Of a DNA stretch of 32,887 nt, positions 435 through 31,362 are shown one piece after another. Source of the stretch: a bacterium (GTDB taxonomy: Bacteria > Sysuimicrobiota > Sysuimicrobiia > Sysuimicrobiales > Humicultoraceae); the NCBI GenBank assembly GCA_050695215.1, contig JBOGSD010000015.1, positions 1 to 32,887 of the forward strand. The letters are read 5' to 3'. The stretch's first letter is position 1. Every line of letters begins with the position of its first letter. Under the pieces are notes generated by a model, which was not told the DNA's origin, did no database searches, and worked only from the letters and a program-made list of their open reading frames with translations. A program made the position numbers and the translations under genes.

Positions 435-2405
435 TCAGCCGCGCCGTGTGGGCCACGCGCTGAGGAGGCCAGCCAGGGCCATCAGCAGTCCCCCCGTCCA
501 AATCCAGGTGACCAGCGGGCTGCTGATGATCTTGAGGGCCGCCCCGTGGTCCTCGTCCACGCTCAGCAGCACGAGATAGAGATCCCCGCGCCAGCTGGAA
601 CGGACCGCCGGGGTAGGGATGGGGGTGCGCTGCTGAGGATAGTGGTTTTCCGAGGGGCGCAGCACCTCGAGAATACGGGGGGCGGGCGCGCCCTGCGGCG
701 CCGCTTCCAAGGCATCCCCCGCCAGCACGGCGACCTCGGCCGCGACGACCACGCGGTCGGGCCGCTGCGTGATCCGGGAGCCCTCGTACCGCAGGAGATA
801 GCCGGGGCCGCGGATCATCTCGCCCGGCCGGGCCAGGTAGTCGCGTTCGCTGCGGTAGGCGAAGGACACCGTCACGCCTGCCAGCATCAATGCCAGTCCC
901 AGGTGCGCCAGGTAGCCGGCGTAGCGCCGCCGGTTGATCGAAAAGAGCGCGGCCAGCGCCGCGGGGTAGGCGCGCCGCTCGGCGCGCATGAGGGCGTGGG
1001 CGCCCCGGTGGAACTCGGTCAGTTGGGCCAGCGCGGTGAACCCGATCACCGCCAGGGCCAGCAGCGTCGGGCCGCGAACGCCGACGAGCGCCAGCGCGCC
1101 GGTCCCGGCCACGGCGCCGGCCCCCGGCCAGCGAAACCGGCGCAGGGCGTCTCGTGGCAGGGGACCCCAGGGCAGGAGGGTGGCGATCGCCATCAACAAT
1201 AGCAGGAGCAGACCGAGGGGCCCGATCAGCCGGTTGAAATAGGGCGGGCCGACGGTGAGTTTCACCCCGGCCACCGCCTCGGCCAGAAGCGGGAACATCG
1301 TCCCGATAAAGACCGTGGCCGCGATCGCCAGCAGGACCAGGTTGTTCAGCAGGAAGACCGTCTCCCGGCTGAGGACGGCGGGAAGCGTCCCGGTGTCGCG
1401 CACCTCGTTCCGGCGGGCCACCAGCGTCGCTACCGACACGGTGAGGACCAGCGTCATGAAGCCGAGAAAGATCGGGCCGATCAGCGATTGGGTGAAGTCG
1501 TGCACCGATCCGAGGATGCCGCTGCGCGTCAGAAAGGTCCCAAAGATCGTCAGCAGAAAGGTGACGATGACCAGCGCGTGGTTCCAGAGGCGGAGCAGCC
1601 GGCGCCGTTCCTGCACCATCACCGAATGGAGAAACGCGGTCGCGCCCAGCCAGGGCATCAGCGCGGCGTTCTCCACCGGATCCCACGCCCAGTAGCCTCC
1701 CCAGCCGAGGACTTCGTACGACCACCAGGCTCCCAGCACGATGCCGGCGCCGAGGAACGACCAGGCGGCCAGCGTCCACCGGCGCGTCGCCAGCATCCAC
1801 TCGTCCCGCATGGTGCGCGACAGGAGGGAGGCGAGGGCGAAGGCGTAGGGCACCGAGAAGCCGACGTACCCGAGATAGAGCAGCGGCGGGTGGATCGCCA
1901 TGAGCGGGTGGTTCTGCAGCAGGGGATTGAGGCCGCGGCCTTCCGGCGGAACCGGGTCGAGCCGCACGAAGGGGTTGGCCGGACCGAGCATCAAGAGCAG
2001 AAAGAAGATGGCGATGGACAGCAGCACCGCCAGCGCAAAGGGGGTGGTCTCCGGATGGCGGTGGCGGTAGCGGACGGCGACCAGGACGGTGTAGCCGGCG
2101 AGCACCCAAGCCCACAGCAGGATCGAGCCCTCCAGGGCGCCCCAGAGCCCGATGACCCGAAAGAGGAGTGGGGTGCTGCTATGGATGTTCAGCGCCACGT
2201 ACTGGACGGAAAAGTCGACGCCGATCAGCGCCCGCTCCAGGGCGACGACGGCCACCGTGACCGCCCCGAACATGATGCAGACGGCCCGCGTGCCGGTCTG
2301 GCGGCGGCGCGGATCTCCGCCCCGCGCGCGCACGAACGCGACCAGCGCCACCACGGCGGCGGCGGCGGCGACGGCGACGGCGAGAAAACCGGCGGTGGCG
2401 TTCAC
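435..2405 (-). CDS. ccmF: Cytochrome c-type biogenesis heme lyase CcmF
   Basis: 656 aa polytopic membrane protein. The N-terminal TM1-loop-TM2 arrangement matches E. coli CcmF. Tryptophan-rich WWD motif (WGGYWAWDPVEN) and conserved His residues are present. Confidence 0.9.
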   Translation of the reverse strand: MNATAGFLAVAVAAAAAVVALVAFVRARGGDPRRRQTGTRAVCIMFGAVTVAVVALERALIGVDFSVQYVALNIHSSTPLLFRVIGLWGALEGSILLWAWVLAGYTVLVAVRYRHRHPETTPFALAVLLSIAIFFLLLMLGPANPFVRLDPVPPEGRGLNPLLQNHPLMAIHPPLLYLGYVGFSVPYAFALASLLSRTMRDEWMLATRRWTLAAWSFLGAGIVLGAWWSYEVLGWGGYWAWDPVENAALMPWLGATAFLHSVMVQERRRLLRLWNHALVIVTFLLTIFGTFLTRSGILGSVHDFTQSLIGPIFLGFMTLVLTVSVATLVARRNEVRDTGTLPAVLSRETVFLLNNLVLLAIAATVFIGTMFPLLAEAVAGVKLTVGPPYFNRLIGPLGLLLLLLMAIATLLPWGPLPRDALRRFRWPGAGAVAGTGALALVGVRGPTLLALAVIGFTALAQLTEFHRGAHALMRAERRAYPAALAALFSINRRRYAGYLAHLGLALMLAGVTVSFAYRSERDYLARPGEMIRGPGYLLRYEGSRITQRPDRVVVAAEVAVLAGDALEAAPQGAPAPRILEVLRPSENHYPQQRTPIPTPAVRSSWRGDLYLVLLSVDEDHGAALKIISSPLVTWIWTGGLLMALAGLLSAWPTRRG

Positions 2406-2429: not shown

Positions 2430-2825
2430 TCACGGCGCGGGCGTTGGGGGCTTGTACTCTTCCGAGTGCTTCACGATGATGCTGCGCGCCAGGAAGGTAC
2501 CGTCCCCGCCCAGCGTCCCTTCGACGATGGCGCCCTGTCCCTCCGTGAAGAGCCCGGGCGGCGCGCCCTGGTGGCGCACCGGGATCGCCGCGCCGCCATC
2601 GGTGAGCATGAAGCTCAGCTGCTGCGTGGCCGGATCCCAGCTGCGCGAGCCCGGCTGCACCTGGCCGCCGATGCGCAGCGATTTCCCCTGCGCCGCCGCG
2701 CCCTGCGCGAGCAACTCCCCGGGGGTGATGTAGAAGACGACCGCCCCGCGGATGCCGCCGATGATCAGGTAGATCAGCGCCGCCACGACCACGGCGGCGG
2801 CGAGGGCGATCCGCGCTCGTCTCAC
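2430..2825 (-). CDS. ccmE: Cytochrome c-type biogenesis heme chaperone CcmE
   Basis: 131 aa with an N-terminal TM anchor and the FYxTPGEL motif. VKHSEEY supplies the heme-binding His/Tyr. The ATG overlaps the ccmD stop (ATGA). Confidence 0.85.
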   Translation of the reverse strand: MRRARIALAAAVVVAALIYLIIGGIRGAVVFYITPGELLAQGAAAQGKSLRIGGQVQPGSRSWDPATQQLSFMLTDGGAAIPVRHQGAPPGLFTEGQGAIVEGTLGGDGTFLARSIIVKHSEEYKPPTPAP

Positions 2826-2926
2826 CGAGCGGCCTCCTTCAGCCGGCGGCGGAGGCGAAGCAGGTACAGCAGAATGCCGCCCCAGACAATCGCATACGCC
2901 AGGGCGATGGCGACGGGTGGGGTCAC
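2822..2926 (-). CDS. ccmD: Heme exporter protein CcmD (very small, 34 aa)
   Basis: GTG at 2926 overlaps the ccmC TGA (GTGA). It encodes VTPPVAIALAYAIVWGGILLYLLRLRRRLKEAAR, a single TM helix followed by a basic tail, which is typical of CcmD. It sits at the expected position between ccmC and ccmE. The rest of the 2822..3295 ORF overlaps ccmC out of frame. Confidence 0.5.
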   Translation of the reverse strand: MTPPVAIALAYAIVWGGILLYLLRLRRRLKEAAR

Positions 2927-3594
2927 GCGGGCTCCCCCGCCGCGGCCGCCAGCCGGGTCCTCTCGAGACGGGCGAGGCGTACGCGCAGCGTCAGGAGATA
3001 GGCGTACAAGAGGAAGAAGGCGGCCAGGTTGATCAGGAGCGCGGTCAGCATCGGCGGGGCCATCTGGATGTCGCCGCGTACGATCGAGGCCGGCTGGTGC
3101 AGCGTCCGGAACCAGACCACCGAGTAGTGAATCAGGGGGATGTCGAGGGCGCCGACGATCCCGATGACGGCGGCCAGGCGGGCGCTGCGCTCGGGATCCT
3201 CCGCCAGCTCGCGCACGAGCAGATAGCCCACGTAGATCAGAAAGAGGATGGCGGTTGTGACCAGCCGGGCGTCCCAGGTCCACCAGGTGCCCCACACCGG
3301 TTTACCCCAGATCATCCCGCTGGCCAGCGCCAGTCCGGTGAAGAGCACGCCGATCTCGGCGGCGCCGTGGGCGACGCGGTCGTAGCGCATGCGCCGCTTC
3401 CACAAATACAGGAGGCTGGCGACCGCCACGGTGCCAACGGCCAGGTAGGCGGTAGCGGCGCTGGGCACGTGCACGTACATGACGCGGACGTACTGTCCCT
3501 GAAAGGCATCGGGCGGAGAGGCGATGAGGCCGGCGTAGGCCCCCGCTCCGGCGACGAGGAGGGTCGCCACGCCGAGGAGGCGGGAGGGGTTCAC
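2923..3594 (-). CDS. ccmC: Heme exporter protein CcmC
   Basis: 223 aa with 6 TM segments. WWD motif WGTWWTWDARL. ATG at 3594 overlaps the ccmB stop. Confidence 0.9.
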   Translation of the reverse strand: MNPSRLLGVATLLVAGAGAYAGLIASPPDAFQGQYVRVMYVHVPSAATAYLAVGTVAVASLLYLWKRRMRYDRVAHGAAEIGVLFTGLALASGMIWGKPVWGTWWTWDARLVTTAILFLIYVGYLLVRELAEDPERSARLAAVIGIVGALDIPLIHYSVVWFRTLHQPASIVRGDIQMAPPMLTALLINLAAFFLLYAYLLTLRVRLARLERTRLAAAAGEPA

Positions 3595-4250
3595 GCTTCC
3601 TCCATCACCACTTCAAAGAGCAGCGGCACGATCAGCAGGAACAGCAGATCACATACCCCCAGCACGCCGGCCCAGAGAGAGATGGCTCCTCCGAGCAGCA
3701 CCGCTTCGGTGAGCCGCACCCCCGCCAGGACCACCGGCAGCGACACCGGCAGCAACAGCAGCGGCATCAAGAGCTCCCGGCCGCGCACGTGCACGGCCAG
3801 AGCGGCGAAGGTCGTGCCGAGGGCGGCCAGACCGGCGACGCCCAGCGCCCCCACGGCCAGCAGCGCCGGCAGTCTGCTCCACAGCGCCAGGTTGAACAGC
3901 ACGGCCGTCGCCGGCAACAGCGCCGTCCACAGCAGCATGAGCATCACGCCGAGCGCCGCCCACTTGCCCCAGAACAGGTGCTCGCGGCGCCCCGGATAGA
4001 GCAGCAGCGCCTCTAGGGTGTCGCCCTCCGCTTCCTGCAGCGTCGGCCGCGCCGCCCCCAGCATCGCCGCCAGGGTCAGGGCCACCCAGAGAATGGCCGG
4101 GGCGCGGGCTGGATCGCTGCCCAACGAAAACCCGAGCAGCAGGATGATCAGGAGCGCGGTGACGGCCATCGTGGTGATCGTCTGGCGGGCCCGCCATTCC
4201 GTCAGCATGTCCTTGCGGGCCAGGGATCCCGCCCGCCGCACGCCGATCAC
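3591..4250 (-). CDS. ccmB: Heme exporter permease CcmB
   Basis: Polytopic membrane protein. The likely start is GTG at 4250 overlapping the ccmA TGA (GTGA); an alternative ATG lies at 4208. The ORF-track extension to 4370 overlaps ccmA and is rejected. Confidence 0.8.
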   Translation of the reverse strand: MIGVRRAGSLARKDMLTEWRARQTITTMAVTALLIILLLGFSLGSDPARAPAILWVALTLAAMLGAARPTLQEAEGDTLEALLLYPGRREHLFWGKWAALGVMLMLLWTALLPATAVLFNLALWSRLPALLAVGALGVAGLAALGTTFAALAVHVRGRELLMPLLLLPVSLPVVLAGVRLTEAVLLGGAISLWAGVLGVCDLLFLLIVPLLFEVVMEEA

Positions 4251-4954
4251 GCCGGACCTCCCACGAGCGCGCGCAGCAGTGGAGAGATGCGCTGGACGTC
4301 GGCGGCGTCTACCTGCCGCCCCTCCGCGAGGGCCACGACTCGATCGGCGAGGGAGAGGCCGCGCTGCCACTCCGCGGCGGCCAGGACGGCGGCTCCTCCG
4401 GACGCCCGCACCTCTCCGACCAGCGCCGAGACCAGCGTGGCTCCTTCAGCATCCAACCCGCCGAAGGGGTCGTCGAGCAAGAGCAGGCGCGGGCGGAGCA
4501 GCCACGCCCGGGCGAGGGCGAGGCGCCGTCTCATCCCCTGGCTGTAGGTGCGCACTAGTCGGCCGGCGGCGCGGGAGAGGCCCACGCGCTCGAGCAAGGA
4601 GGCGATCTCGGACGGCCCAGCTGGCGCACTCCCCATCGCGGCGGCGAACGCCAGGTTCTCTGTCCCCGTGAGGGCGCCGTACGCCCCGCCGCCCACGCTC
4701 ACGAAGACGGTGAGACGCCGCACCGCGTCAGCCTCGCGCACCAGGTCCCGTCCGAAGACCGATCCTCGCCCGCGGCTGGGCCGCAGCGCCGTCGCGAGCA
4801 GCCGCAGCAGCGTCGTCTTGCCGGCGCCGTTGGGGCCGGCGATCAGCAGCACCGAGGAGGGGGCCAGGGTCAGCGTGACGTCACGCAGGGCGTCATGGAA
4901 GCCCAAACGCCGGGAGAGGCCCTCCGTGTCAATCGCGGGCGGCACCATCGGCAA
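4247..4954 (-). CDS. ccmA: Heme exporter ABC ATPase CcmA
   Basis: Walker A GPNGAGKTT, ABC signature YSQGMRRRLALA, Walker B LLLDDP. Start is TTG at 4954 or ATG at 4948. Confidence 0.85.
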   Translation of the reverse strand: MPMVPPAIDTEGLSRRLGFHDALRDVTLTLAPSSVLLIAGPNGAGKTTLLRLLATALRPSRGRGSVFGRDLVREADAVRRLTVFVSVGGGAYGALTGTENLAFAAAMGSAPAGPSEIASLLERVGLSRAAGRLVRTYSQGMRRRLALARAWLLRPRLLLLDDPFGGLDAEGATLVSALVGEVRASGGAAVLAAAEWQRGLSLADRVVALAEGRQVDAADVQRISPLLRALVGGPA

Positions 4955-4991
4955 GAGGAGGTTCGCGGGCGGGGCTCAGGAGCCTTGCCCG

Positions 4992-6548
4992 TTATTGCCG
5001 CTCCGGTTCCCACCCATAGACGGGAAGGATGTCCACGGGCGCGTAGTCGTCGGTGAGGATGGGGACGTCTGTGGTGGGGACCGCTTTGTCGTACAGGTCA
5101 CCGACGAACCGATCGTAGAGAGGGAAGCTCACTTTCTTGCCGCGCTTCAGTTTCACCCCGGCGTCCACCACCTGGGTCCGGGTCAGTCCCCCCTTCGGCG
5201 ACGCCACCAGGATGATGGTGCGCACCCCGGTCGGCTCCCGGTCGGGGAGGAAGGCCACGGGGAAGGGATAGAGGCCCGGGAAGACCTGACCGTACGTGCG
5301 GTACAGGGCGCGGAAGAGCTTGCTCTCCCGTCCGTCCAGGGCGCCGACGATGTTGGCGGCGATCAGCCCGCCCGGCGTCAGATGCGCCCGCGCCAGCTCG
5401 AAGAACTCTCGGGTCGCCAGGTGGAAGGGGATCCCTTCGGCAAAGTAGGCGTCCATGACGATCAGGTCGTATTTGGCCTCGCTGCGGCGGAGAAAGAGGC
5501 GGCCGTCCTGCACCGTGATGCGCAGCCGCCGATCCTCTTTCACCTCGAAGAATCGTTTAGCGACGTCGACGACGGCCGGATCCAGCTCCACGACGTCGAT
5601 CGTCACGGCGGGGTAATCCCGCCAGAACCTCTTGGGGATCGACCCTGCGCCGAGGCCGATCACCAGCACCCGTTTGATCTGGGGGTGAAAGACCCAGGCG
5701 ACGTGGATGTAGTCGGTGTATTTGAAGGGGCTCTCGTAGATGTTGCTGTGGTACATGCCGCCCTGGAAGGAACGGTCGAAGCGGAGGTAGCGCGCCCCGC
5801 CGTCGTCGACGACCAGGATGCGGTGGTAGATGCTGTCCTTCTCGTAGAGGACCCTCGGCTCGGCCGGCGCGGTCTGCGCGGGCGCGGCCAGGACCGCCAG
5901 CAGGAGCAGGCCCGTCAAGGCGGCGCGGGCCGTGCGGGGGGCCCGCACCCGCACCGCCAGCAGCGCGGCGAAGCCGACGAGGGAGCCCCCCAACAGGTAG
6001 AGGATCGTGCGTACGCCGAGGGCGGGGATGAGCAGGAAGGCGGTGAGCAGGGTGCCCGCGATGCTGCCGGCGGTGGAAATCGCATACAGCATTCCGGCGA
6101 CGTTGCCGACCGTGGCCAGGTCGGTCGCCGCCAGCTTCACGGCGAAGGGAGAGGTCATCCCCAGGAGCAGCGAGGGGGCGACGAAGAGCACCACCGACGC
6201 CAGGAGGGGATTGAGGCGCGGCCCCAGGTCCCAGGCGGCGAAGGTTTCGAGGATGGGGCGCGAGAGCAAGGGCAGCAGGAGGATGAGGACGCCGGCCAGC
6301 GACAGCGCCGCGGCCAGGACCCCGCTCGTGGGACGCCGGTCGGCCAGGAGGCCGCCGCTGTAGTAGCCCGCGCTGAGGGCCGCCAGGAAGATGCTGATCA
6401 GACTGCCCCAGACGTACACCGAGGAGCCGAAGTACGGCGCCAGGATCCGGCTGCCGACGATTTCCAATCCCATCAGCACCGCGCCCGCGCCGAAGACCAC
6501 TACTCGCAAAATCACCGCATCGCCTCCTCGGACATCTTGCCGCAGCAC
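4992..6548 (-). CDS. Fused polytopic-membrane / spermidine synthase-like aminopropyltransferase
   Basis: 518 aa. The N-terminal ~230 aa are multi-TM. The C-terminal part carries the class I MTase-like fold of SpeE: VLVIGLGAGS and DLIVMDAYF...EGIPFHLATREFF. Confidence 0.75.
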   Translation of the reverse strand: MLRQDVRGGDAVILRVVVFGAGAVLMGLEIVGSRILAPYFGSSVYVWGSLISIFLAALSAGYYSGGLLADRRPTSGVLAAALSLAGVLILLLPLLSRPILETFAAWDLGPRLNPLLASVVLFVAPSLLLGMTSPFAVKLAATDLATVGNVAGMLYAISTAGSIAGTLLTAFLLIPALGVRTILYLLGGSLVGFAALLAVRVRAPRTARAALTGLLLLAVLAAPAQTAPAEPRVLYEKDSIYHRILVVDDGGARYLRFDRSFQGGMYHSNIYESPFKYTDYIHVAWVFHPQIKRVLVIGLGAGSIPKRFWRDYPAVTIDVVELDPAVVDVAKRFFEVKEDRRLRITVQDGRLFLRRSEAKYDLIVMDAYFAEGIPFHLATREFFELARAHLTPGGLIAANIVGALDGRESKLFRALYRTYGQVFPGLYPFPVAFLPDREPTGVRTIILVASPKGGLTRTQVVDAGVKLKRGKKVSFPLYDRFVGDLYDKAVPTTDVPILTDDYAPVDILPVYGWEPERQ

Positions 6549-6549
6549 C

Positions 6550-7563
6550 TCATTGTGACATAGCCGACGACCCGCGCAAGGCGACCCAGAGCGGGTCCTC
6601 AGGACGAAACCCGCGGTAGGGGACGATGCGATCGATCACGCCCCCGGCGCGGCCGCGGAGACGGGTGCCGATCGTCCCATCGTCCACCACCAGCGCGAAG
6701 GTCTCCAGCATCTCGTCCGTCACCAACCCCGGCATCTCCTCCCAGCGGCCCGTCACGGCCAATCGGCTGAGCCGCTCCCCCACACGCTCCCAGCCGTGGA
6801 GGGACAGGATCCGGCGATAGGAGGGGGTGGAGGCGTAGAAGGCGATCGTGCGGCGCGCGGCCGCAACGACGCGGTCGCGGGCGGACCCGGACTCCGCCAC
6901 GATGATGACGCTGGCCGCCACCGTCAGCGCGTCGCGGGGACGGCCGGCGAGCCGGAGGCCCCGGTCCACCGCCGGCAGGACGATCTCCCGCACGTATCGT
7001 TCGGAGTGCAGGGGATGGACGTGCAACCCATCGGCCACCTCCCCGGCGAGACGGCACATCGCCGGGTTGACCGCGGCGAGGTAGATGGGGATGTCGCCGA
7101 CGAGGGGGGGCGGCGGGGTGAAGAAGGGTGTCATCAGCGACAACGAATAGAAGGGACCCTCGTAGCGCAGCGGGGTCCCGTCGCGCCAGGCCCCCCACAC
7201 GGCGCGGATAGCCTTGATGACGTCGCGCATGCGGGCCACCGGACGCTCCCAGGCCATCCCAAAGCGCCGCTCCACGTGGGCGCGCACCTGCGAGCCCAGC
7301 CCCAGGATGAACCGTCCCCCGGAGAGGCGGGCCAGCCCCCAGGCCAGATAGGCCAGTGAGGTGGGGCTGCGCACGAAGGCCAGGGCCACGGCGGTCCCGA
7401 TCTGCACGCGGGTGGTGTGCTCGACCGCCAGCGCGGCGGCCAGGAACGGATCGGCCTCGGTTTCGCTGAACCAGATCCCGTCGAGACCCTGCGCCTCGGC
7501 CGCCCGGGCGAGGGCGCCCACGGCCTCCAGCTCGCCCGCCCCCAGGGCGGCGTCGATCCGCAC
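6550..7563 (-). CDS. LLM-class (luciferase-like) F420-dependent oxidoreductase
   Basis: Homology begins at (V)RIDAALGAGELEAVGALARAAEAQGLDGIWFSETEADPFL, the typical LLM N-terminus. GTG at 7563 lies 4 nt after the band-7 stop. The upstream part of the ORF-track call overlaps the band-7 gene. Confidence 0.75.
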   Translation of the reverse strand: MRIDAALGAGELEAVGALARAAEAQGLDGIWFSETEADPFLAAALAVEHTTRVQIGTAVALAFVRSPTSLAYLAWGLARLSGGRFILGLGSQVRAHVERRFGMAWERPVARMRDVIKAIRAVWGAWRDGTPLRYEGPFYSLSLMTPFFTPPPPLVGDIPIYLAAVNPAMCRLAGEVADGLHVHPLHSERYVREIVLPAVDRGLRLAGRPRDALTVAASVIIVAESGSARDRVVAAARRTIAFYASTPSYRRILSLHGWERVGERLSRLAVTGRWEEMPGLVTDEMLETFALVVDDGTIGTRLRGRAGGVIDRIVPYRGFRPEDPLWVALRGSSAMSQ

Positions 7564-7567
7564 GGCG

Positions 7568-8488
7568 CTATCGCTGGGGTTCGGGGCGGAAGACGTCCAG
7601 CAGGGGGACCGGCCCGCTGCCGGTGACGACCTGGGGGAGCCGGCCGTCCCATTTCTCGATCGCCCGCATCTGCGCCTCGATGCGCCGCAGCGCCACCAGC
7701 TCGGCGGTGACCTGCTGCTTCTGCACACGCAGGGCCTCCGCCTCGGCTTTGGCTTTTTCGATCTGCTGCTGCGCCTCCAGTTTCACCCGCTGCAGGTCGC
7801 GTTCGGCCTTCAGCGCCAGCTGCGTCGCCGTCACTTTGGCCTCGATGGCCTTGGTGAACTCTTCGCTGAAGTCGAAGTCGGTAATGGAAACCGTGTCCAA
7901 CAGAATCCCGTGCAGGGCGAGCCGGGTGCGCAAGACGTTTTCGATCGCGGCCTTCACCGCGTCCCGCCGGGTGATCAGCTCCTCCGCCTTGAAGCGGGCG
8001 GTGCTGGCCTTCACCGCCTCCAGCACCGCGGGCTTGACGATGCGCTGCACATAGTCGCGGCGCAGGCTGCGGTAGACTCGCACCACCTCGGCCGGGTCGA
8101 GCGCGTAGTTGAGCGTGACCTTGGTGTGCACCACCTGCAGGTCGTTGGAGGCCGCCTCCGCGTCCGCTTCGTAGGCCTCCGTCTGTACCGACATCTCGAC
8201 GACGTTCTCCACCAACGGGGTGATCAGGTAGATGCCTTCGGGCAGAATCCGGCCGGTCGGGCCTCCGAATCGCACCACCACCCCCCGCGTGCCGGCGGGG
8301 ATCTGGCCGACGGCGCTGAGGAGGCCGAGGACCAGGACGAAGAGGACCAGACCGATGAGCAGTCCGGCCGGTCGCAGGGTGGGGCCGAGCCGCCCGTCGC
8401 GATCGCGGTCGCCGAGCCGGAACGCGCCGGCCCACGCTATCCACAGCAGAAAAGCCCCGAGGCCGATGAGCCATTTCAACACGGTCAC
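7568..8488 (-). CDS. SPFH/band-7 (prohibitin/HflKC-like) membrane protein
   Basis: GTG start at 8488 is preceded by GGAGGTGA with a 7-nt spacer. An N-terminal TM helix is followed by an SPFH domain and a C-terminal coiled-coil (KAERDLQRVKLEAQQQIEKAKAEAEALR). Confidence 0.8.
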   Translation of the reverse strand: MTVLKWLIGLGAFLLWIAWAGAFRLGDRDRDGRLGPTLRPAGLLIGLVLFVLVLGLLSAVGQIPAGTRGVVVRFGGPTGRILPEGIYLITPLVENVVEMSVQTEAYEADAEAASNDLQVVHTKVTLNYALDPAEVVRVYRSLRRDYVQRIVKPAVLEAVKASTARFKAEELITRRDAVKAAIENVLRTRLALHGILLDTVSITDFDFSEEFTKAIEAKVTATQLALKAERDLQRVKLEAQQQIEKAKAEAEALRVQKQQVTAELVALRRIEAQMRAIEKWDGRLPQVVTGSGPVPLLDVFRPEPQR

Positions 8489-8695
8489 GTCAGCGTCACC
8501 TCCGACCCTTTGTTCCGGGTGTCTGGTCGAACCTCCTCGCCGGGGCGGCGCCGCGCGGGGCGGGTGTCTAGCGGAGCGAACGAGACGGGTATGTGCTGGA
8601 GGAGTCCACCACGTTCCCCGGCAGGATTCGCCGCCCCCCGGCGCGAACGGTGCCGGTCGCGGGAAAGGCTGCAGGGACGACAACTCAGGTGCTGG
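8489..8695. promoter_or_regulatory. Divergent intergenic region between the band-7/ccm block (-) and the amidase block (+), presumed promoters
   Basis: 207 nt non-coding. It contains an imperfect direct repeat CGGGTGTCT..CGAAC at 8516-8534 and 8560-8582. No clear -35/-10 can be assigned by eye. Confidence 0.3.
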
Positions 8696-10450
8696 ATGAA
8701 GCTGGCAGGAGCGCTGCTCCTGGCGGTGGTGCTGCTCGCATCACCGGGCCGTAGCGCCAACAGTCAAACCTCTCCCGTCCGCGTCATCGTCCACGGCCAG
8801 GAGGTCTCCCTGGCCGCGCCGCCGATTCTGTATGGCGGCGTCCTGATGGTGCCGCTCCCCGGGCTCTTCGAGCCGTTAGGATCCTCCGCGGTGTGGCTGC
8901 CGGACGAGAAGGCCATTCTGATCAGCAACCGCACCCGGACCGTGATCCGGATGCGCATCAACGATCCCTACGCGCACGTCGGGACCGAGCCCCGCCTGTT
9001 GCCGATCGCGCCGGTGCTGCTGCGGGAGATTCCCTTCATTCCCGCCCAGGCGATCTTCAGCCTGCTCGGCGCGTTCGTGCGTTATGAGGAAGAGGAGCGG
9101 GTCCTGCGGGTCAGCGCCATCGTCAGCGCCGTCTCGGTGCAGCGCGCCGGGGGGACCCTCCGGCTGATCGCGCGCGCCAGCGGACCGGTGCGGGCGGAGA
9201 CGCGCCATTTCACGCTCCCCGAGCGGGTCGTCATCGACCTGCGCGACGCCGTGTTCCGGCTGCCCGATCAAGAGATGGCGATCGGGGAAGCCGGGGTCGC
9301 CCGCGTGCGCATCGCCCAATTCCAGGCCAAGCCGGCGATCACGCGGATTGTACTGGACCTGACCCACCCCGTGGACGTCCGGGTGTCCGACTCCGTGAAC
9401 GCCTTCGACCTGACGATGGAGGTGCGTCCGCGCGCGGCCTCCTCCCGCCCCGCCGCGGCCGTCGCTCCCGCGGCGCCGCCGGGTACATCGCCCGCTCCGC
9501 CCGGCGGGACCGATCCCGGCGCCCCGCCCCCACCGGCTCCGCCCCCCGCCGCGGCAGGTGCGGAGTCGTTGAAGATCATGCAGGTGCGGGTCGATCAGGC
9601 CAGCGGCACGACTCGGGTGCTGGTGGAGGGGACCGCGACGATGCAGTACGTCGTCCGGGAACTGGTCGACCCCGACCGCCTGGTTGTGGACATCATGGAG
9701 GCCGTCTTCATCCCGGTGAAGCAGGAGATCCCCGTCAACAGCGCCGTGGTGGAGAACGTCCGCGCCGCGCAGTTCCAGGCCGATCCCGACATCGCCCGCG
9801 TCGTGGTCACGCTGAAACGCAAGGCCGCCTATACGATTACCGCCGACGCCGGGGGCACGGCGCTGGTGATCGCCGTCGCCGACGCGCCGCTGCGCGGCCA
9901 CGTCGTCGTCCTCGATCCAGGGCACGGCGGCAAAGACCCGGGGGCGATCGGGCCGACGGGGTTGATGGAGAAGCACATCACGCTCGACGTCGGCCTGCGC
10001 GTGCGCCGCCTGCTGGTGGAAGATGGGGTGCGCGTGATCATGACGCGGGAGACGGACGTCTACATCGAACTGGCCGACCGGACGCGCCTCGGCAGGGAAC
10101 GCGGCGGCACCGTCTTCGTCAGCCTGCACACCAACGCCAACACGCTGGCCGCCGTCAACGGCTCAGAGACCTACTACCTGACGCCGCTCAGCCTCTCCCT
10201 GGCGCAGATGATCCAGGACGAATTGGCGCGCGCGCTGGGGCTGCCCAGCCGCGGCATCAAGACCGCCAACTTCTTGGTGCTGCGCGAGAACAACGCCATG
10301 CCGTCCGTGCTGGTGGAGGTGGCCTTCATCTCACACCCCCAGGAGGAGGCGCGCCTGCGGGAGGAGACCTTCCGCGAGCGCATCGCCGCCGCCGTCACCC
10401 GCGGGATCACGCGCTTCCTGGCGATCTATCCCGTCCCCGCTGGGCTCTAG
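8696..10450 (+). CDS. Secreted N-acetylmuramoyl-L-alanine amidase (Amidase_3) with an N-terminal copper-amine-oxidase-like 'stalk' domain and two AMIN domains
   Basis: ATG at 8696 is in frame with the tail of the spurious 7361..10450 ORF. Signal peptide MKLAGALLLAVVLLASPG is followed by a Cu_amine_oxidN1-like segment (ILYGGVLMVPL...WLPDEKAILI). Two AMIN-like repeats follow (GTLRLIARASGPV..., GTTRVLVEGTATMQYV...). A Pro/Ala-rich linker precedes the Amidase_3 core (VVVLDPGHGGKDPGA...FVSLHTNA). Confidence 0.85.
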   Translation: MKLAGALLLAVVLLASPGRSANSQTSPVRVIVHGQEVSLAAPPILYGGVLMVPLPGLFEPLGSSAVWLPDEKAILISNRTRTVIRMRINDPYAHVGTEPRLLPIAPVLLREIPFIPAQAIFSLLGAFVRYEEEERVLRVSAIVSAVSVQRAGGTLRLIARASGPVRAETRHFTLPERVVIDLRDAVFRLPDQEMAIGEAGVARVRIAQFQAKPAITRIVLDLTHPVDVRVSDSVNAFDLTMEVRPRAASSRPAAAVAPAAPPGTSPAPPGGTDPGAPPPPAPPPAAAGAESLKIMQVRVDQASGTTRVLVEGTATMQYVVRELVDPDRLVVDIMEAVFIPVKQEIPVNSAVVENVRAAQFQADPDIARVVVTLKRKAAYTITADAGGTALVIAVADAPLRGHVVVLDPGHGGKDPGAIGPTGLMEKHITLDVGLRVRRLLVEDGVRVIMTRETDVYIELADRTRLGRERGGTVFVSLHTNANTLAAVNGSETYYLTPLSLSLAQMIQDELARALGLPSRGIKTANFLVLRENNAMPSVLVEVAFISHPQEEARLREETFRERIAAAVTRGITRFLAIYPVPAGL

Positions 10451-27065: not shown

Positions 27066-27524
27066 GTGGGGCGAAAGGGTGCGGTGCGTCGCTTCTGGAA
27101 CCGGCTTGATCGAGCGATGATTTCCCTCATGCAGGCGCAGGGCGTGCGCCTCCTGCGCATGGCGCTGGGCGTGGTGTTCGTGTGGTTTGGGGCGTTGAAG
27201 GTAGCGGGGATCAGCCCCGTGGCCGACATGGTCTCCCAGACGGTGTACTGGGTCCGCCCGGAGGTCCTGGTGCCGCTCCTCGGCGTCTGGGAAGTGGCCG
27301 TCGGCCTGGGTCTGCTTTTTGGGGTGGCGCTCCGGCTCGTCCTCTTGCTCTTCTGGCTGCAAATGGCCGGCACGTTTCTGGTCCTGCCGCTGCGTCCGGA
27401 ATTGGCCTTCCAGTCTGGCAACCCTCTACGCTTGACGGCCACGGGTGAGTTTGTCGTGAAGAATCTGGTCCTCATCGCGGCGGGTCTCGTCGTGGGGAGT
27501 ACGGTCTCGAAGCCGAGAGACTGA
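27066..27524 (+). CDS. DUF417/DoxX-like small polytopic membrane protein
   Basis: LLRMALGVVFVWFGALKV motif with 4 TM segments. GTG at 27066 or ATG at 27117. Confidence 0.6.
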   Translation: MGRKGAVRRFWNRLDRAMISLMQAQGVRLLRMALGVVFVWFGALKVAGISPVADMVSQTVYWVRPEVLVPLLGVWEVAVGLGLLFGVALRLVLLLFWLQMAGTFLVLPLRPELAFQSGNPLRLTATGEFVVKNLVLIAAGLVVGSTVSKPRD

Positions 27525-27539
27525 CGGAGCAGACCAACC

Positions 27540-28088
27540 ATGGAGAAGAGACTTCTGCACGTTCAGCCCCTTCCGGGATTCGACCCCCAGATCGGGACAT
27601 GGCTATGGGCCATGCAGCAGGTGCGGCGGCGGACACTCCGGCTGGTCGACGGGCTGGATCAGCGGGTGCTGGACTGGGAGGGTCTCGATGAGCGTGAGAA
27701 CGCCATCGGGACGCTCCTCTACCACATTGCGGACGGCGAGATGGGGTGGCTCTTTGGGGACCTTCTGCTGCAGCCCCACTTCCCAGAGCGCGTGAAGCCA
27801 GACTTTCCCTATCCTCCGCGCGGTCCTGATAAGCGACTGACCCCTGTGCTCGGAGAGCCGTTGGAGTCACATCTCGGCCGTCTCGCCCGCAGCCGGAAGG
27901 TGTTCCTGGAGACATTCAAGGAGATCCCGGCGGAGGAGTGGCGGCGTCTCCGGCATCCCGAGGGCGAGGATTACGCTGTGACGCCCGAGTGGGCGGTTTT
28001 CCATCTCATCGAGCATGAGGCCGGCCACGCCTTCCAGATCAGTTCGCTGAAAGCCAGAGCCGGCAGGCACTTCGGCCCCCGGGTCTAA
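27540..28088 (+). CDS. DinB/YfiT-like (DUF664) four-helix-bundle metalloprotein
   Basis: LLYHIADGEMGWL ... HLIEHEAGHAFQI places the conserved His residues as in the DinB_2 family. Confidence 0.75.
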   Translation: MEKRLLHVQPLPGFDPQIGTWLWAMQQVRRRTLRLVDGLDQRVLDWEGLDERENAIGTLLYHIADGEMGWLFGDLLLQPHFPERVKPDFPYPPRGPDKRLTPVLGEPLESHLGRLARSRKVFLETFKEIPAEEWRRLRHPEGEDYAVTPEWAVFHLIEHEAGHAFQISSLKARAGRHFGPRV

Positions 28089-28198
28089 CGCGTCCAAATG
28101 GACCATCCCGGAGGCGTCGTCTGAGAGCGTCTGCGCGTCGTGACCTGGTCGCGGGGGCGGCCGCCGGTCTAATCGGCGGGGTCGTCTTCAGTTGGGCG

Positions 28199-29932
28199 AT
28201 GGCCGCGCAGGGGTTGCGCGCCTCGGTGGCGGGACTGGCGGGCCTGCCGCAGGGTCCGGCCGGTCCGATCCCCGACCTGGCAGCGGCAGTGGTCATCGGC
28301 GCCGGGTTCGGACTGCTTTTTCGGTATCAGCCTCTCGCCTATGCTGCGACGATCAGCAGCGGCGTGCTCTACGGGCTGCTCTGGTGGATCGTGGGTCCGC
28401 TCACGCTCGCGCCGCTCTTGGCGGGGCGCGGGCCGACCTGGGCGCTGGCGGAGGCGGGTGCGGCCCAGCCCAGTCTCGTCGGACACATCATCTTTGGGGC
28501 GCTCATCGGCCTGACGTTCTACGTCATCGTGACGGCCTATCTGCGGAGGCGTCCCGAGCCCGCGCCCCTCGCCGTGGCGTCCCCCCCCAGCACGCGGATT
28601 GTGATTCTGGGAGGGGGCTTCGGAGGCGTGAGCGCGGCGCAGCGCCTCGAGCACCTCCTCTCCCGGCGGCCGGCGGTGAGCCTCGCCCTGGTCAGCCACA
28701 GCAATTACCTCTTGTTCACGCCGATGCTGGCCGAAGTCGCCGGCAGCGGCCTGGAGGCGCAGCACATCAGCGCGCCGGTGCGCGCGGCGCTGCCGCACAC
28801 GCGGTTCCTCCGCGGCACGGTCGAGGCCATCGACGCCGCCGCTCGCACGGTGACCGTGCGCGAGAGCGCCTCGGGCGCCGCCGAAGTGCTGCGCTATGAC
28901 CATCTCATCCTCGCCCTCGGTGCGGTCCCGAATTTCTACGGATTGGGCGGGATGGCCGAGCACGCGTTCACCCTGAAGACGCTCGACGACGCCACACGCC
29001 TGCGCAACCATGTCATTGCGCTGCTGGAAGCCGCCGACGTCGAGCCGGACGCGTCTCGCCGGCGCGCCATGCTGACCTTCGTGGTGGCCGGCGGGGGCTT
29101 CGCCGGGACGGAGATGATCGCCGAACTCTTCGATCTGGTGCACGGCGTGCTGCGCTACTATCCCCACGTCGAGCCGGAGGAGACCCGTTTCGTCCTCGTG
29201 CACTCCGGCGGACGCATTCTGCCGGAGATCAGCCCGGCGCTGGCCGACTATGCGCAGCGGCGGCTGGCCGCGCGGGGGATTGAGTTCTTCCTGAACACCC
29301 GGGTCGGCGGGGCCGTGGCGGATGCGGTGCGCCTGGCCGGCGCCGGAGAGCTGGCCACGCGCACCCTCGTCTGGACGGCGGGGAACCAACCCCATCCGCT
29401 CCTGGCCACGCTGCCCTGCGACCGCAACCGCTCTGGGGCCGTCATCGCCGATGAGACGCTGCGGGTGGGCGGGCTTGACGGCGTGTGGGCGGTGGGGGAT
29501 TGCGCCGAAATCCCGGATCTCAACAACGCCGGGAGGCCGTGTCCGCCGACCGCCCAGCATGCGCTGCGAGAGGGGCAGGTCGCCGCGGAGAATATCGTCG
29601 CCGCGCTGCGGGGAGCGCCGCCGCGGGCGTTTCGCTTCCGGACCATCGGCACGCTGGTGGCGTTGGGCCACCGCACCGCGGTCGCGGAAATTCGCGGCTG
29701 GAAGTTCTCTGGCTTCCTGGCCTGGGTGATGTGGCGGACGGTCTATCTGAGCAAACTGCCGGGGTTGGAGAAGAAGGTGCGGGTGGCGCTGGACTGGACG
29801 ATTGACCTGTTCTTCCCGCGAGACATCGTCCTCACCGGTTCCATTCCAACCCCCACGCTCGCCCAGACGTTGGGGACCCGGCCCGACCCTGCTCTTCCAG
29901 TGGGCGGCCGGGGCCAGGAGGCGGGCTCATGA
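28199..29932 (+). CDS. ndh: Type II NADH:quinone oxidoreductase (NDH-2) with an N-terminal ~110-aa two-helix membrane module
   Basis: Two Rossmann GxGxxG motifs (IVILGGGFGGV, FVVAGGGFAGTE) and a C-terminal amphipathic membrane anchor. The N-terminal extension VVIGAGFGLLF...YGLLWWIVGPLTLAPLLAG is the same repeat unit found three times in the next gene. The start may lie upstream of the ATG (see findings). Confidence 0.8.
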   Translation: MAAQGLRASVAGLAGLPQGPAGPIPDLAAAVVIGAGFGLLFRYQPLAYAATISSGVLYGLLWWIVGPLTLAPLLAGRGPTWALAEAGAAQPSLVGHIIFGALIGLTFYVIVTAYLRRRPEPAPLAVASPPSTRIVILGGGFGGVSAAQRLEHLLSRRPAVSLALVSHSNYLLFTPMLAEVAGSGLEAQHISAPVRAALPHTRFLRGTVEAIDAAARTVTVRESASGAAEVLRYDHLILALGAVPNFYGLGGMAEHAFTLKTLDDATRLRNHVIALLEAADVEPDASRRRAMLTFVVAGGGFAGTEMIAELFDLVHGVLRYYPHVEPEETRFVLVHSGGRILPEISPALADYAQRRLAARGIEFFLNTRVGGAVADAVRLAGAGELATRTLVWTAGNQPHPLLATLPCDRNRSGAVIADETLRVGGLDGVWAVGDCAEIPDLNNAGRPCPPTAQHALREGQVAAENIVAALRGAPPRAFRFRTIGTLVALGHRTAVAEIRGWKFSGFLAWVMWRTVYLSKLPGLEKKVRVALDWTIDLFFPRDIVLTGSIPTPTLAQTLGTRPDPALPVGGRGQEAGS

Positions 29933-31362
29933 GGAGCGATCTCTGGCGGCGCGGGATCTGGCCCGGGGCGCTCGCGGGGCTCATCGGCGGCGGCATCTCT
30001 GCGGCGGTGCTCTCGCGATGGGCGGCGCTGCCGCCGACGGCGTCGCTCGTGCGCGCCGATGCCGCCGTGGCGGGCTTCCTGCTCCATCTGGCCTTCGGCA
30101 TCATCCTGGGCGCGGGGTTCGGGCTGCTGGTCTGGCACCAGCGCCCCGGCGCGGGGGAAACGCTCTTCTGGGGATTGGCCTGGGGCGCGCTGTGGTGGTT
30201 CCTCGGACCGCTCACGTCGCTCTCGCTGCTGCTGCTCGGCTTTCTCGCCTGGGATCTCCATTCAGCGCAGGAAGCCTTCCCCAGTTTTCTCGGGTATCTG
30301 CTCTACGGCGGCATCACCGGGCTCACCCTGGCGGTGATCCGCCGCGATCGGACTAAGGCCGTGGGTCGGCGCGGAGGCGCGCTGCTCCGCGGTGGAGCGG
30401 CGGGCTTCGCCGGAGGGGCGCTGCTGGCGTGGCTGCTGGGTGTGCAGGGTTTGCTGGACGCGTTTCCAGTCATGGCGGCCGGCCGGGGTTCGGCCTGGTT
30501 GCCGCTCCTGCTGAACGGCGCGCTGGCCGGCGTCCTCTATGCGCTGCTGTATCCGCGGGCCCCTGAAGGGACCGGTCCGGGATTGATCCGGGGGATGATC
30601 TACGGCTACGCCTGGTGGGTGGTCGCCTCACTTCTCCCCACGGCGACTGGAGGCGAGAGGCCCCTGGGCCCCGCCGCGGGCGACTTCTCCATGCTGCCAG
30701 GCTACCTGCTCTTTGGCGCCGCGACCGCGCTGTTCTACGCCTGGCTCGATGGCCTCGGGCGTCTGCTTTTCTCCGACATGGTGCCGGGGCGCGACGCCGA
30801 AGGTATCGGCACGGAAGGGCTGCGGGCGCTGGGCCGAGGCGCCGTCGCCGGCCTGATCGGGGGAACGTTCTTCGCCCTGATCATCGTCCAGATCGGCGGC
30901 CTCTCGGCGATGGACCGCCTGATCGGCTCTACCTCCGTGTGGGGATTGATCGCGCAGGTGCTGCTAGCGCAGGTGATCGGGATCAGCTACGGGGTGCTCT
31001 TCCGCCGTCAGAGTTACGACGTCGGGTCGGGTCTGGGGTGGGGAATCTCCTACGGCTTCTTCTGGTGGGTGCTAGGGCCCCTGACGCTGACGCCACTCTT
31101 CCTGGGGTCGGCGCCGCGGTGGAGGGTGGAGGCGGCCGCCGAACTCTTCCCGTATCTGATCGGACACCTCGCCTTCGGCGCCGCGCTCGGTGTGACGTTC
31201 CACCTGCTCGAGGCGCGACACAATCCCTGGTGGATTCCCCGCTCGACAGCCGAAGCGGCGCGGGTGGCCCTGCGGCGAGAACGCGTCCTGACGTCGGCGC
31301 CCGCGCTGTGGGCGATTGTGGCGGTCATTGCGCTCACCCTGCCGGTACTATTGGCGCGCTGA
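29929..31362 (+). CDS. Uncharacterised polytopic membrane protein built from three tandem ~125-aa repeats (AGLIGG ... YGxxWWxLGPLTLxPLxLG ... FPxxLGxLxxG)
   Basis: ATG overlaps the ndh stop (ATGA). The three repeats are visible by eye in the translation (residues ~12-139, ~155-275, ~293-420). No family recognised. Confidence 0.7.
   Translation: MRSDLWRRGIWPGALAGLIGGGISAAVLSRWAALPPTASLVRADAAVAGFLLHLAFGIILGAGFGLLVWHQRPGAGETLFWGLAWGALWWFLGPLTSLSLLLLGFLAWDLHSAQEAFPSFLGYLLYGGITGLTLAVIRRDRTKAVGRRGGALLRGGAAGFAGGALLAWLLGVQGLLDAFPVMAAGRGSAWLPLLLNGALAGVLYALLYPRAPEGTGPGLIRGMIYGYAWWVVASLLPTATGGERPLGPAAGDFSMLPGYLLFGAATALFYAWLDGLGRLLFSDMVPGRDAEGIGTEGLRALGRGAVAGLIGGTFFALIIVQIGGLSAMDRLIGSTSVWGLIAQVLLAQVIGISYGVLFRRQSYDVGSGLGWGISYGFFWWVLGPLTLTPLFLGSAPRWRVEAAAELFPYLIGHLAFGAALGVTFHLLEARHNPWWIPRSTAEAARVALRRERVLTSAPALWAIVAVIALTLPVLLAR

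Follow-up and report, generated by a model that had tools for sequence, protein, structure and literature searches.

A predicted NDH-2 fused to a four-helix membrane module and its three-module partner form a gene pair conserved across bacterial phyla

Two open reading frames on the + strand of the window (i.e., the whole stretch of 32,887 nucleotides that was analysed) lie exactly where the original prediction had placed them: 28199..29932, annotated as an NDH-2 of 577 aa, and 29929..31362, which encodes a membrane protein of 477 aa, henceforth referred to as the partner. Both proteins contain copies of a four-helix membrane unit, which we call a module (module N in the NDH-2 protein; B1, B2 and B3 in the partner). 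The features of the pair are as follows.

28110..28114, + strand: Shine-Dalgarno-like GGAGG, 6 nt 5' of the CTG, read directly from the sequence
28121..28123, + strand: CTG, probable true start of the NDH-2 fusion gene (start position of the relatives; no in-frame alternative)
28121..29932, + strand: NDH-2 fusion gene from the probable start, 603 aa (N-terminal module, linker, complete NDH-2, disordered tail)
28121..28555, + strand: module N, aa 1-145 (blastp against the partner modules, AF2 helices, module HMM)
28556..28591, + strand: end of helix 4 and linker, about aa 146-157 (low pLDDT, poorly conserved)
28592..29812, + strand: predicted NDH-2 catalytic body, aa 158-564 (Pfam, 4nwz alignment, Foldseek, conservation)
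29201..29215, + strand: codons H361-S-G-G-R365 (in the 4nwz alignment, His for Glu and Arg for Thr of 'VEAAPT')
29929..29932, + strand: ATGA overlap of the partner start codon and the NDH-2 stop codon, read from the sequence
29929..31362, + strand: partner gene, 477 aa (three modules and a conserved tail, 13 transmembrane helices)
29929..30366, + strand: module B1, aa 1-146 (37% identity to module N; helices 2-30, 45-67, 75-103, 110-138)
30367..30804, + strand: module B2, aa 147-292 (greatest divergence among the copies; helices 148-172, 186-207, 215-235, 253-281)
30805..31215, + strand: module B3, aa 293-429 (highest conservation among the copies and nearest to module N, 39% identity)
31216..31296, + strand: NPWW motif and amphipathic helix (438-453), predicted cytoplasmic, aa 430-456
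31297..31353, + strand: 13th transmembrane helix, aa 457-475 (structure model, conservation)

The annotated start of the NDH-2, ATG 28199, probably lies within the gene. Upstream of it the frame is open, and the encoded '...RRDLVAGAAAGLIGGVVFSWA' lines up with helix 1 in all repeats; there is no in-frame ATG, GTG or TTG between the stop codon ending at 28018 and 28199. The NDH-2 genes of relatives start with ATG (9) or GTG (5) exactly 5 codons 5' of a conserved RRD; at this position both the window and its closest relative (locus L003) have CTG, ahead of which L003 has GGGGAGGGAG where the window has GGAGG. Given the open upstream frame, its alignment with helix 1 and the start position of the relatives, we conclude from the sequence that CTG 28121 is probably the true start and that the gene thus spans 28121..29932 (603 aa). 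In the present record the start codon therefore appears to be mis-called, and the N-terminus carries no domain in the current annotation. The N-terminal extension had been described as a two-helix segment of about 110 aa; an extension is indeed present, and it spans an entire four-helix module (about 145 aa) and the linker behind it. In the AF2 model its transmembrane (TM) helices lie at aa 3-29, 50-67, 74-100 and 116-143, with a WW..GPLTL.P core in helix 3 and a GH in helix 4.

We found three tandem copies of the same module in the downstream protein. Specifically, blastp aligned the N-terminal extension with partner residues 299-427 (39% identity, E 1e-28), 7-137 (37%, E 2e-24) and 152-270 (30%, E 1e-13), so the predicted 1+3 architecture (a single module attached to the enzyme, three in the next protein) holds. 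A motif skeleton is common to the copies, while position-specific signatures are kept across homologues. As anticipated, the most conserved element in each module is its WW-x-x-GPLTL-x-P core, which in TM3 of every module lies mid-membrane and contains helix-breaking Gly and Pro; conservation in B3 reaches 0.85 in loop 2 and 0.88 in TM3. The partner continues beyond its three modules: a strongly conserved NPWW segment is followed by an amphipathic helix and then by a 13th TM helix. Among 114 partner homologues, P433, W434 and W435 vary little or not at all, and P458 and W461 of the 13th helix are invariant. The structure model of the partner places all 13 helices in one compact body (pLDDT 87.6, pTM 0.90), indicating that such modules indeed pack against one another.

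The remainder of the first protein is a predicted NDH-2 enzyme whose modelled fold is intact and complete. In the annotated 577-aa ORF, Pfam located the NDH-2 body between residues 133 and 542 (Pyr_redox_2: 7.9e-42, 144.1 bits against a cut-off of 26.1; NDH2_C: 1.1e-11, 45.1 bits against a cut-off of 27.7) and assigned no domain to the N-terminus of that ORF. The catalytic body comprises, in order, FAD and NAD(P)H Rossmann domains, a C-terminal beta-sheet and two membrane-facing helices (aa 531-564); it matched C. thermarum NDH-2 (4nwz) with an E of 9e-50, and Foldseek gave a TM-score of 0.90 to that protein over the whole target. The Rossmann motifs GGGFGG and GGGFAG are invariant among 107 fusion homologues, and no stretch of the protein is more strongly conserved than the C-terminal membrane-facing helices (0.88). 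In the linker, by comparison, AF2 confidence drops to a pLDDT of about 70 or less and mean column conservation is 0.42; with a pTM of only 0.71 for the fusion protein, the model does not pin down how module and enzyme are placed relative to each other.

An acidic residue that ends the second Rossmann beta-strand selects NADH in NDH-2. This residue is absent here: in the alignment, the Glu of C. thermarum 'VEA' is matched by His361 and the Thr by Arg365, and both are at least 90% conserved in the 107 fusion homologues, which suggests a different nucleotide preference rather than exclusion from NDH-2. The quinone-site motif AQxAxQ reads AQHALR (i.e., with Arg instead of the second Gln, the first being retained), as it also does in the clade consensus. 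Judging from these positions, the substrates may differ from those of textbook NDH-2. A related explanation sees the enzyme as an NADPH-dependent reductase acting on quinones or other lipophilic electrophiles, with a part in detoxification or redox homeostasis rather than in respiration, and the modules as presenting or sequestering its substrate. The replacement of both nucleotide-site residues and of the second Gln would fit such a role, as would the doxX-like and DinB/MST-like genes that precede the pair (gaps of 15 and 32 nt) in the window and its closest relative; NADPH-preferring NDH-2 do exist, S. aureus NDH-2B being a precedent (PMC11302666). However, the doxX-DinB context is absent from the other 78 loci compared, and in both its overall fold and its C-terminal quinone-site helices the enzyme matches canonical NDH-2. 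Moreover, that His and Arg at 361 and 365 determine NADPH use is our assumption, made by analogy. We consider a non-respiratory NADPH reductase rather unlikely. This explanation concerns the physiological role of the enzyme and is compatible with a two-protein complex.

To assess the link between the two genes we compared 80 loci from reference genomes, 74 of which have sequence upstream of the partner. In all 74 the NDH-2 gene lies directly upstream on the same strand, and reverse look-ups agreed in both cases (2/2). The co-occurrence, a check that the original prediction had called for, is thus complete across several phyla and supports the proposal that the downstream protein is a dedicated NDH-2 partner. 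The two genes overlap by ATGA at 29929-29932, as originally noted, and overlapping junctions were found in 54 of the 58 assessable loci (38 of 58 by the same 4 nt), in line with the suggested translational coupling. The module HMM matched 65 out of 65 N-terminally complete NDH-2 orthologues, and one more has the module across a frameshift. With loci labelled as Armatimonadota, Chloroflexota, Acetothermia, Trueperaceae, Actinomycetota and Bacillota, conservation of the two-gene unit extends to at least five or six bacterial phyla. All-against-all clustering of the flanking ORFs of the 80 loci revealed no other conserved neighbour, so we regard the NDH-2 and its partner as a functional unit. Cultured species carrying the pair are found in Actinomadura, Nocardia, Nonomuraea and Thermocatellispora.

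These data bear on two further explanations. One is that fusion and adjacency arose by chance, module and downstream protein being functionally unrelated to the enzyme. All that speaks for this is the module family's want of a known function; an adjacency of 74/74 and a fusion of 65/65 across distant phyla contradict it, as do the overlapping junctions and the want of any other conserved neighbour, making chance extremely improbable. The other is that the partner acts transiently on the NDH-2 fusion, as an assembly, insertion or stabilising factor or as a regulator, and is not a stoichiometric subunit. Strict synteny and coupling would be expected equally of a dedicated chaperone, and homologous modules could recognise each other at membrane insertion. 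On the other hand, 13 TM helices, 50-80% identity of the partner homologues across phyla and position-specific signatures look like those of a structural subunit, and translational coupling favours equimolar synthesis; we thus find a transient factor improbable.

The division into one and three modules also recurred in an exhaustive module-profile search of 1.84 billion representative proteins, which gave 1,274 matches. Among the best 150 of these, the best-scoring matches carry three modules (a few scored as four stretches yet are shorter than 500 aa), the NDH-2 fusions carry one, and there were no four-module chains or full fusions. Several apparent split or stand-alone partners were rejected: one is a fragment at a contig edge (P0329), one a three-module gene with a frameshift (L089), one lies on a fragmented contig labelled 2x coverage (L090), and two (L091 and L092) belong to a decayed copy interrupted by in-frame TAG codons and by a frameshift. 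The only candidate for a true single-module protein, P0364, sits on a 1.3-kb contig.

The module had been taken for an undescribed family, and this did not hold. Pfam gave no match for the 477-aa partner itself, and neither the partner nor the NDH-2 N-terminus of the window matched DUF1440 (PF07274) at E<=1; of 23 partner homologues, by comparison, 21 matched DUF1440 at E<=0.01, and all four homologues that were scanned individually scored 34.8-47.3 bits against a gathering cut-off of 34.7. DUF6789 (PF20587) matched 5/23 homologues over profile positions 2-141 of 144, with scores of 25.9-29.3 bits that straddle the gathering cut-off of 27.1, and gave no match in the window's own partner. The matches of the relatives to both families map to module B3, and one module corresponds to one such domain (about 135-144 residues, four TM helices). 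A typical member, E. coli YagU (204 aa), has a single domain, whereas here three stand in tandem and a fourth is fused to an enzyme. JGI labels many homologues 'YagU', and in current annotation the partner goes under either this name or 'hypothetical'. Similarity to E. coli YagU (NC_000913) was not significant in hhalign comparisons, either for the 4-module profile (probability 6.6%, E 0.0055) or for a 160-sequence module profile (probability 0.4%), and we therefore did not transfer YagU's 'acid resistance' label. Given merely 1,274 representatives in 1.84 billion proteins, the module set is a compact subfamily. To our knowledge, the module family has no known quinone-binding motif; our literature search found no functional work on DUF1440 or DUF6789, and the NDH-2 fusion and the 1+3 arrangement are not annotated in the databases searched. 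Nor did we find the pair described in the literature, where a 2016 survey of NDH-2 diversity might mention N-terminal TM extensions (PMID 27105286).

Structural comparison, made with solved structures only, gave no fold match for the partner model, and a PDB sequence search with the partner profile returned noise only. The model bears no likeness to solved transporters (MFS, CLC and others); a known transporter fold, which the original prediction had named as evidence that would count against it, was thus not found among solved structures. The partner contains no conserved buried charges. At the equivalent position of TM4, a His is nearly invariant in modules N and B3 and is replaced by Tyr in B1 and B2. 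Heme ligation was set aside on the grounds that this TM4 His is Tyr in B1/B2 and that TM2 has no conserved His, with Asp and Gln taking its place in the window.

A membrane domain of 17 helices might, alternatively, be active in its own right, with this activity coupled to turnover of the NDH-2 (e.g., ion translocation, or transport of quinone or another substrate), which would make the pair a new energy-conserving or transporting dehydrogenase. The domain is large, conserved and obligatory and exceeds the anchoring needs of an enzyme that itself binds membranes; the mid-membrane WW..GPLTL.P core with its helix-breaking Gly and Pro in every TM3, and the nearly invariant TM4 His of modules N and B3, would also suit such an activity. 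We nevertheless judge it quite unlikely. Slightly more doubtful still is a broader claim that the pair represents an unrecognised class of respiratory NAD(P)H dehydrogenase, with a 17-helix pseudo-tetrameric heterodimer domain that goes beyond anchoring, perhaps coupling NAD(P)H:quinone turnover to ion translocation or holding a cofactor or quinone where modules N and B3 meet. The position proposed for that site is where the equivalent TM4 histidines are nearly invariant. If true, this would add a further enzyme class beside complex I, NQR and classical NDH-2.

The explanation we favour, with a probability of roughly 55%, is that the pair encodes an obligate two-subunit integral-membrane NAD(P)H:quinone oxidoreductase, in which 1+3 modules anchor the enzyme and shape quinone access without pumping. 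Subunit 1 would be the complete NDH-2 with its N-terminal four-helix membrane module, and subunit 2 the three paralogous module copies followed by the NPWW/amphipathic segment and the 13th helix, the two being synthesised in step via the overlapping codons. The positive-inside rule fits an N-in topology of the modules. Module N is predicted to run N-in, C-in, which places the enzyme in the cytoplasm, and the six Lys/Arg of the NPWW/amphipathic segment (aa 430-456) suggest that this segment faces the cytoplasm as well. Module conservation is highest at the cytoplasmic TM2-TM3 loop and in TM3, i.e., on the enzyme-facing side, a pattern consistent with the quinone-handling or scaffolding role that was originally suggested. 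We infer that the two proteins associate physically, module N packing on the three modules of the partner as those pack on each other. The result would be a 17-helix pseudo-tetrameric (1+3) membrane domain directly beneath the enzyme's quinone entry, which would fix the position of the enzyme in the bilayer and might form or gate the route of quinone to the flavin and the exit of quinol; it would not pump ions. Given that the NDH-2 retains membrane-binding helices of its own, it may need no partner for quinone access. If the two proteins do form a complex, the pair would offer the first functional context for the DUF1440/DUF6789 module and an example of how one fused and three tandem repeats can make up a membrane domain, and NDH-2 quinone access could be tested in the cultured carriers.

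NDH-2 is the textbook single-subunit, monotopic, non-pumping respiratory enzyme, and is used as a drug target and as a tool to bypass complex I. With C. thermarum NDH-2 (4nwz) the fusion protein shares the fold, the domain order, both GxGxxG motifs, GDCA, the C-terminal beta-sheet and the two membrane-facing helices. It differs from the canonical enzyme in its N-terminal four-helix TM module and in the 13-helix partner found at every locus, and in having His/Arg and AQHALR in place of the NADH-selecting Glu/Thr and AQxAxQ.

A functional analogy is offered by B. subtilis, whose Ndh has lost membrane-binding residues and depends for both activity and quinone transfer on Ncp, a protein encoded in the same operon; Ncp carries a DUF1641 domain and assembles into lipid-filled tubes and filaments, and this system is confined to Bacillota (PMC13524794, 2026). 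Both systems combine an NDH-2 with a dedicated accessory protein in an operon, and both show strict synteny within one NDH-2 clade, a likeness of function only. By contrast, the partner described here is polytopic and built of DUF1440/DUF6789-like modules, one further module being fused to the enzyme, and Pfam found no DUF1641 match in either protein of the window. The NDH-2 of the window keeps its C-terminal helices, highly conserved, and the pair spans Chloroflexota, Armatimonadota, Actinomycetota and others. The Ndh-Ncp finding had already challenged the single-subunit view of NDH-2; the present pair would represent a different solution, in many more phyla.

Finally, the 'clade D' NDH-2 of Bacillota is transmembrane-anchored and linked to extracellular electron transport (PMC13524794). 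It resembles the fusion protein in being held by true transmembrane helices and not by amphipathic ones alone. The helices of 'clade D' NDH-2 are C-terminal and few, and we know of no repeat-module partner described for it, whereas the fusion protein is anchored at its N-terminus by a four-helix DUF1440-like module and accompanied by an obligate three-module partner.

The NDH-2 gene and the partner gene downstream of it in the window (G+C ~69%) overlap by ATGA, as originally predicted, and have the following annotated extents:

28199..29932, + strand: NDH-2 ORF as annotated, 577 aa
29929..31362, + strand: partner ORF, 477 aa

Residues 133-542 of the 577-aa ORF were assigned to NDH-2 by Pfam (Pyr_redox_2, 7.9e-42; NDH2_C, 1.1e-11), and neither Pfam nor NCBIfam gave an assignment for the NDH-2 N-terminus or for the 477-aa partner. 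We found that the N-terminal extension matched three consecutive segments of the partner, namely residues 7-137 (37% identity, E 2e-24), 152-270 (30%, E 1e-13) and 299-427 (39%, E 1e-28). Judging by these alignments, one module plus enzyme (module N) followed by three modules (B1, B2 and B3), the arrangement put forward in the original prediction, is the true architecture, far above chance.

The frame of NDH-2 is open back to 28018, with no in-frame ATG, GTG or TTG between 28018 and 28199. The part upstream of ATG 28199 encodes '...RRDLVAGAAAGLIGGVVFSWA', a match to helix 1 of every repeat, and the 577-aa call in the public record, starting at this ATG, loses most of that helix. In close relatives the start codon, ATG in 9 loci and GTG in 5, precedes a conserved RRD by exactly five codons. 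Both the window and its closest relative (L003) have a CTG at this position, with no canonical alternative nearby, and a GGAGG 6-8 nt 5' of it (window region 28110-28201). CTG initiation in bacteria is rare. Given the position of the relatives' start codons, the CTG present in both the window and L003, and the upstream GGAGG, we placed the start at CTG 28121; the fusion then appears to be 603 aa long and the public annotation short by 26 codons. With this start the extension, previously described as two helices in ~110 aa, becomes a full four-helix module of ~145 aa.

We scanned one genome per species and obtained 80 loci, whose labels include Armatimonadota, Acetothermia, Trueperaceae, Chloroflexota (Dehalococcoidia, Anaerolineae, Limnocylindrales and Thermomicrobiales), Actinomycetota (including cultured Actinomadura, Planotetraspora, Thermocatellispora, Nocardia and Nonomuraea) and, for Bacillota, one MAG. 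Cultured strains with the gene pair include Actinomadura scrupuli KCTC 19488, Thermocatellispora tengchongensis DSM 45615, Nocardia albiluteola and Nonomuraea salmonea JCM 3324. Six of these were cut by contig ends; all 74 loci with upstream sequence had an NDH-2 gene directly upstream on the same strand, meaning that the expected co-occurrence in other genomes was borne out. The module HMM matched all 65 NDH-2 ORFs complete at the N-terminus; beyond these, the module spanned a frameshift in one locus, and the NDH-2 genes of two others were 5'-truncated. Among 58 assessable junctions the overlap was 4 nt in 38, 1 nt in 9 and 8-29 nt in 7. A reverse look-up from two NDH-2 fusions led in both cases to an unannotated membrane gene immediately downstream, and fusions of ~600 aa are numerous in the protein database, with the N-terminus annotated in none. 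No other conserved flanking genes were found across the loci. What is conserved is the two-gene cassette, in which a complete NDH-2 is fused to one module and an obligate, translationally coupled partner carries three paralogous modules; that this pairing is due to chance is scarcely credible.

Upstream of NDH-2 on the same strand are genes for a DoxX-like membrane protein (27066..27524) and, directly before the NDH-2 start, a DinB_2/mycothiol-S-transferase-like protein (27540..28088); the successive gaps are 15 and 32 nt. The two genes and the NDH-2 pair may make up one operon of four genes that hints at thiol or quinone stress; these two upstream genes are common only to the window and L003.

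Partner homologues number more than 568 (50-84% identity), many with precomputed PF07274 (DUF1440) and some with PF20587 (DUF6789). In individual scans 21 of 23 homologues matched DUF1440 and 5 of 23 matched DUF6789, with no match to either from the window's own partner. The profiles, 135 and 144 positions long, respectively, each align to one module. The relatives' DUF1440 scores exceed the gathering cut-off, so the earlier view of the module as an undescribed family does not hold. Many partner homologues carry the JGI label 'YagU', yet a profile comparison of the module with E. coli YagU was not significant. A search with a four-module profile returned only 1,274 matches among 1.84 billion representative proteins. 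Based on these profile matches, the YagU comparison and the small number of relatives, we place the module as a compact, divergent subfamily inside a catalogued superfamily of unknown function; literature searches found no functional work on DUF1440 or DUF6789.

The best-scoring matches of this exhaustive search contained three modules in ~450-530 aa, a few of them scored as four matched stretches (all <500 aa), and the NDH-2 fusions listed had a single module each; no longer or fully fused chain was present in the best 150 of the 1,274 matches. Shorter relatives that seemed to have one or two modules proved to be fragments at contig edges or frameshifted versions of this same architecture, and these, too, lie downstream of NDH-2. 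The only candidate among them for a true single-module protein is P0364 (L087, 126-734; 202 aa), with one B3-like module and a tail TM helix. Its ORF is preceded by an in-frame stop and by no sequence that resembles a module, and lies on a contig of only 1.3 kb; the protein may be a stand-alone relative not associated with NDH-2. In another locus (L091 2304-5453, with L092 identical) the NDH-2 gene contains two in-frame TAG codons, of which one stands in place of the conserved Trp of VWAVGDCA, and the partner gene is frameshifted within module B3. Decay of the cassette or a faulty assembly is the probable cause, with TAG recoding as a possible alternative.

The structural model of the partner (pLDDT 87.6, pTM 0.90) has an all-helical body with the following helices:

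three units of four helices each
438-453: amphipathic helix
457-475: last helix

Positive charges are concentrated on the predicted cytoplasmic loops, which fits an N-in topology for each module and hence a cytoplasmic location of the NDH-2 body. The four modules have in common the motifs GA.AGL.GG in helix 1, G..(F/Y)G in helix 2, G..YG..WW..GPLTL.P in helix 3 and L.G(H/Y)...GA in helix 4; in addition, a distinct signature is retained among homologues at every module position (N, B1, B2, B3). The peaks of conservation are the NPWW/tail segment and, within each module, TM3 with the cytoplasmic loop between TM2 and TM3, B3 reaching the highest values. The conserved module residues are mostly Gly, Trp, Tyr, Pro and Thr, with no conserved charged residue deep in the membrane. 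At equivalent helix-4 positions, module N has His122 (28484-28486) and the partner His413 (31165-31167), both nearly invariant, and Tyr occupies the position in B1 and B2 of the window. The histidines of N and B3 might act as ligands, should the two modules form an interface.

In the fusion model (pLDDT 82.7, pTM 0.71) the four-helix module is joined by a weak linker to a complete NDH-2, which ends in a disordered tail. The NDH-2 body superposes on C. thermarum NDH-2 with a TM-score of 0.90 (sequence E 9e-50), and the C-terminal membrane-facing helices, which are kept, are conserved more strongly (0.88) than any other part of the protein. The quinone motif AQxAxQ is AQHALR in the fusion. Where C. 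thermarum NDH-2 has 'VEAAPT', with a Glu that we take to be the NADH-selecting residue, the window has 'VHSGGR' (29201-29215, aa 361-365), i.e., His361 for Glu and Arg365 for Thr, both at least 90% conserved among 107 fusion homologues. The fusion clade may have a preference for NADPH or a different mode of quinone binding. These substitutions count in favour of a role as an NADPH-dependent quinone or electrophile reductase, as does the existence of NADPH-preferring NDH-2 enzymes (PMC11302666); we consider such a role a minor possibility.

We propose that the module of NDH-2 would dock on the partner's three modules as these pack on each other, giving a 17-helix, 1+3 pseudo-tetrameric membrane domain beneath the quinone entry. 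This domain would fix the enzyme in the bilayer and shape quinone access and quinol release, with no ion pumping. The most conserved surfaces (the NDH-2 C-terminal helices, cytoplasmic loop 2 and TM3 of the modules, and the NPWW segment) share the cytoplasmic membrane face where both proteins would meet, which supports such docking. To the whole reading (1+3 docking, anchoring, quinone access, no pumping) we give a probability of roughly 55%; a coupled transport or pumping function is unlikely, and that the partner is a transient assembly factor seems quite improbable.

Elsewhere in the window, ccmF (435..2405) and ccmE (2430..2825; both within 435-2825, - strand) are System I genes for the maturation of cytochrome c. 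The organism thus produces c-type cytochromes, and most likely it respires. Two ORFs, 2917-3999 (+, 360 aa, GC3 0.77) and 4548-6563 (+, 671 aa, GC3 0.73), had no Pfam match at E<=0.001, and their coding status is less certain because most neighbouring genes have a higher GC3. A cell-wall amidase of unusually large size, 1029 aa (7361-10450, +), combines Cu_amine_oxidN1, AMIN and Amidase_3.

The enzyme belongs to an established family, and the module falls within a catalogued DUF. For the fused anchor, the 1+3 module arrangement and the invariant pairing, annotation was absent from the databases queried and no description was found in literature searches. The fusion and its partner run against the single-subunit, monotopic picture of NDH-2, and the gene pair is widespread and directly testable in cultured actinomycetes. 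In the Ndh-Ncp system of B. subtilis, NDH-2 depends on an operon partner for quinone transfer (PMC13524794). That partner, however, is a DUF1641 protein which is unrelated to the one in the window and forms lipid-filled tubes, and the Ndh-Ncp system is confined to Bacillota (PMC13524794).
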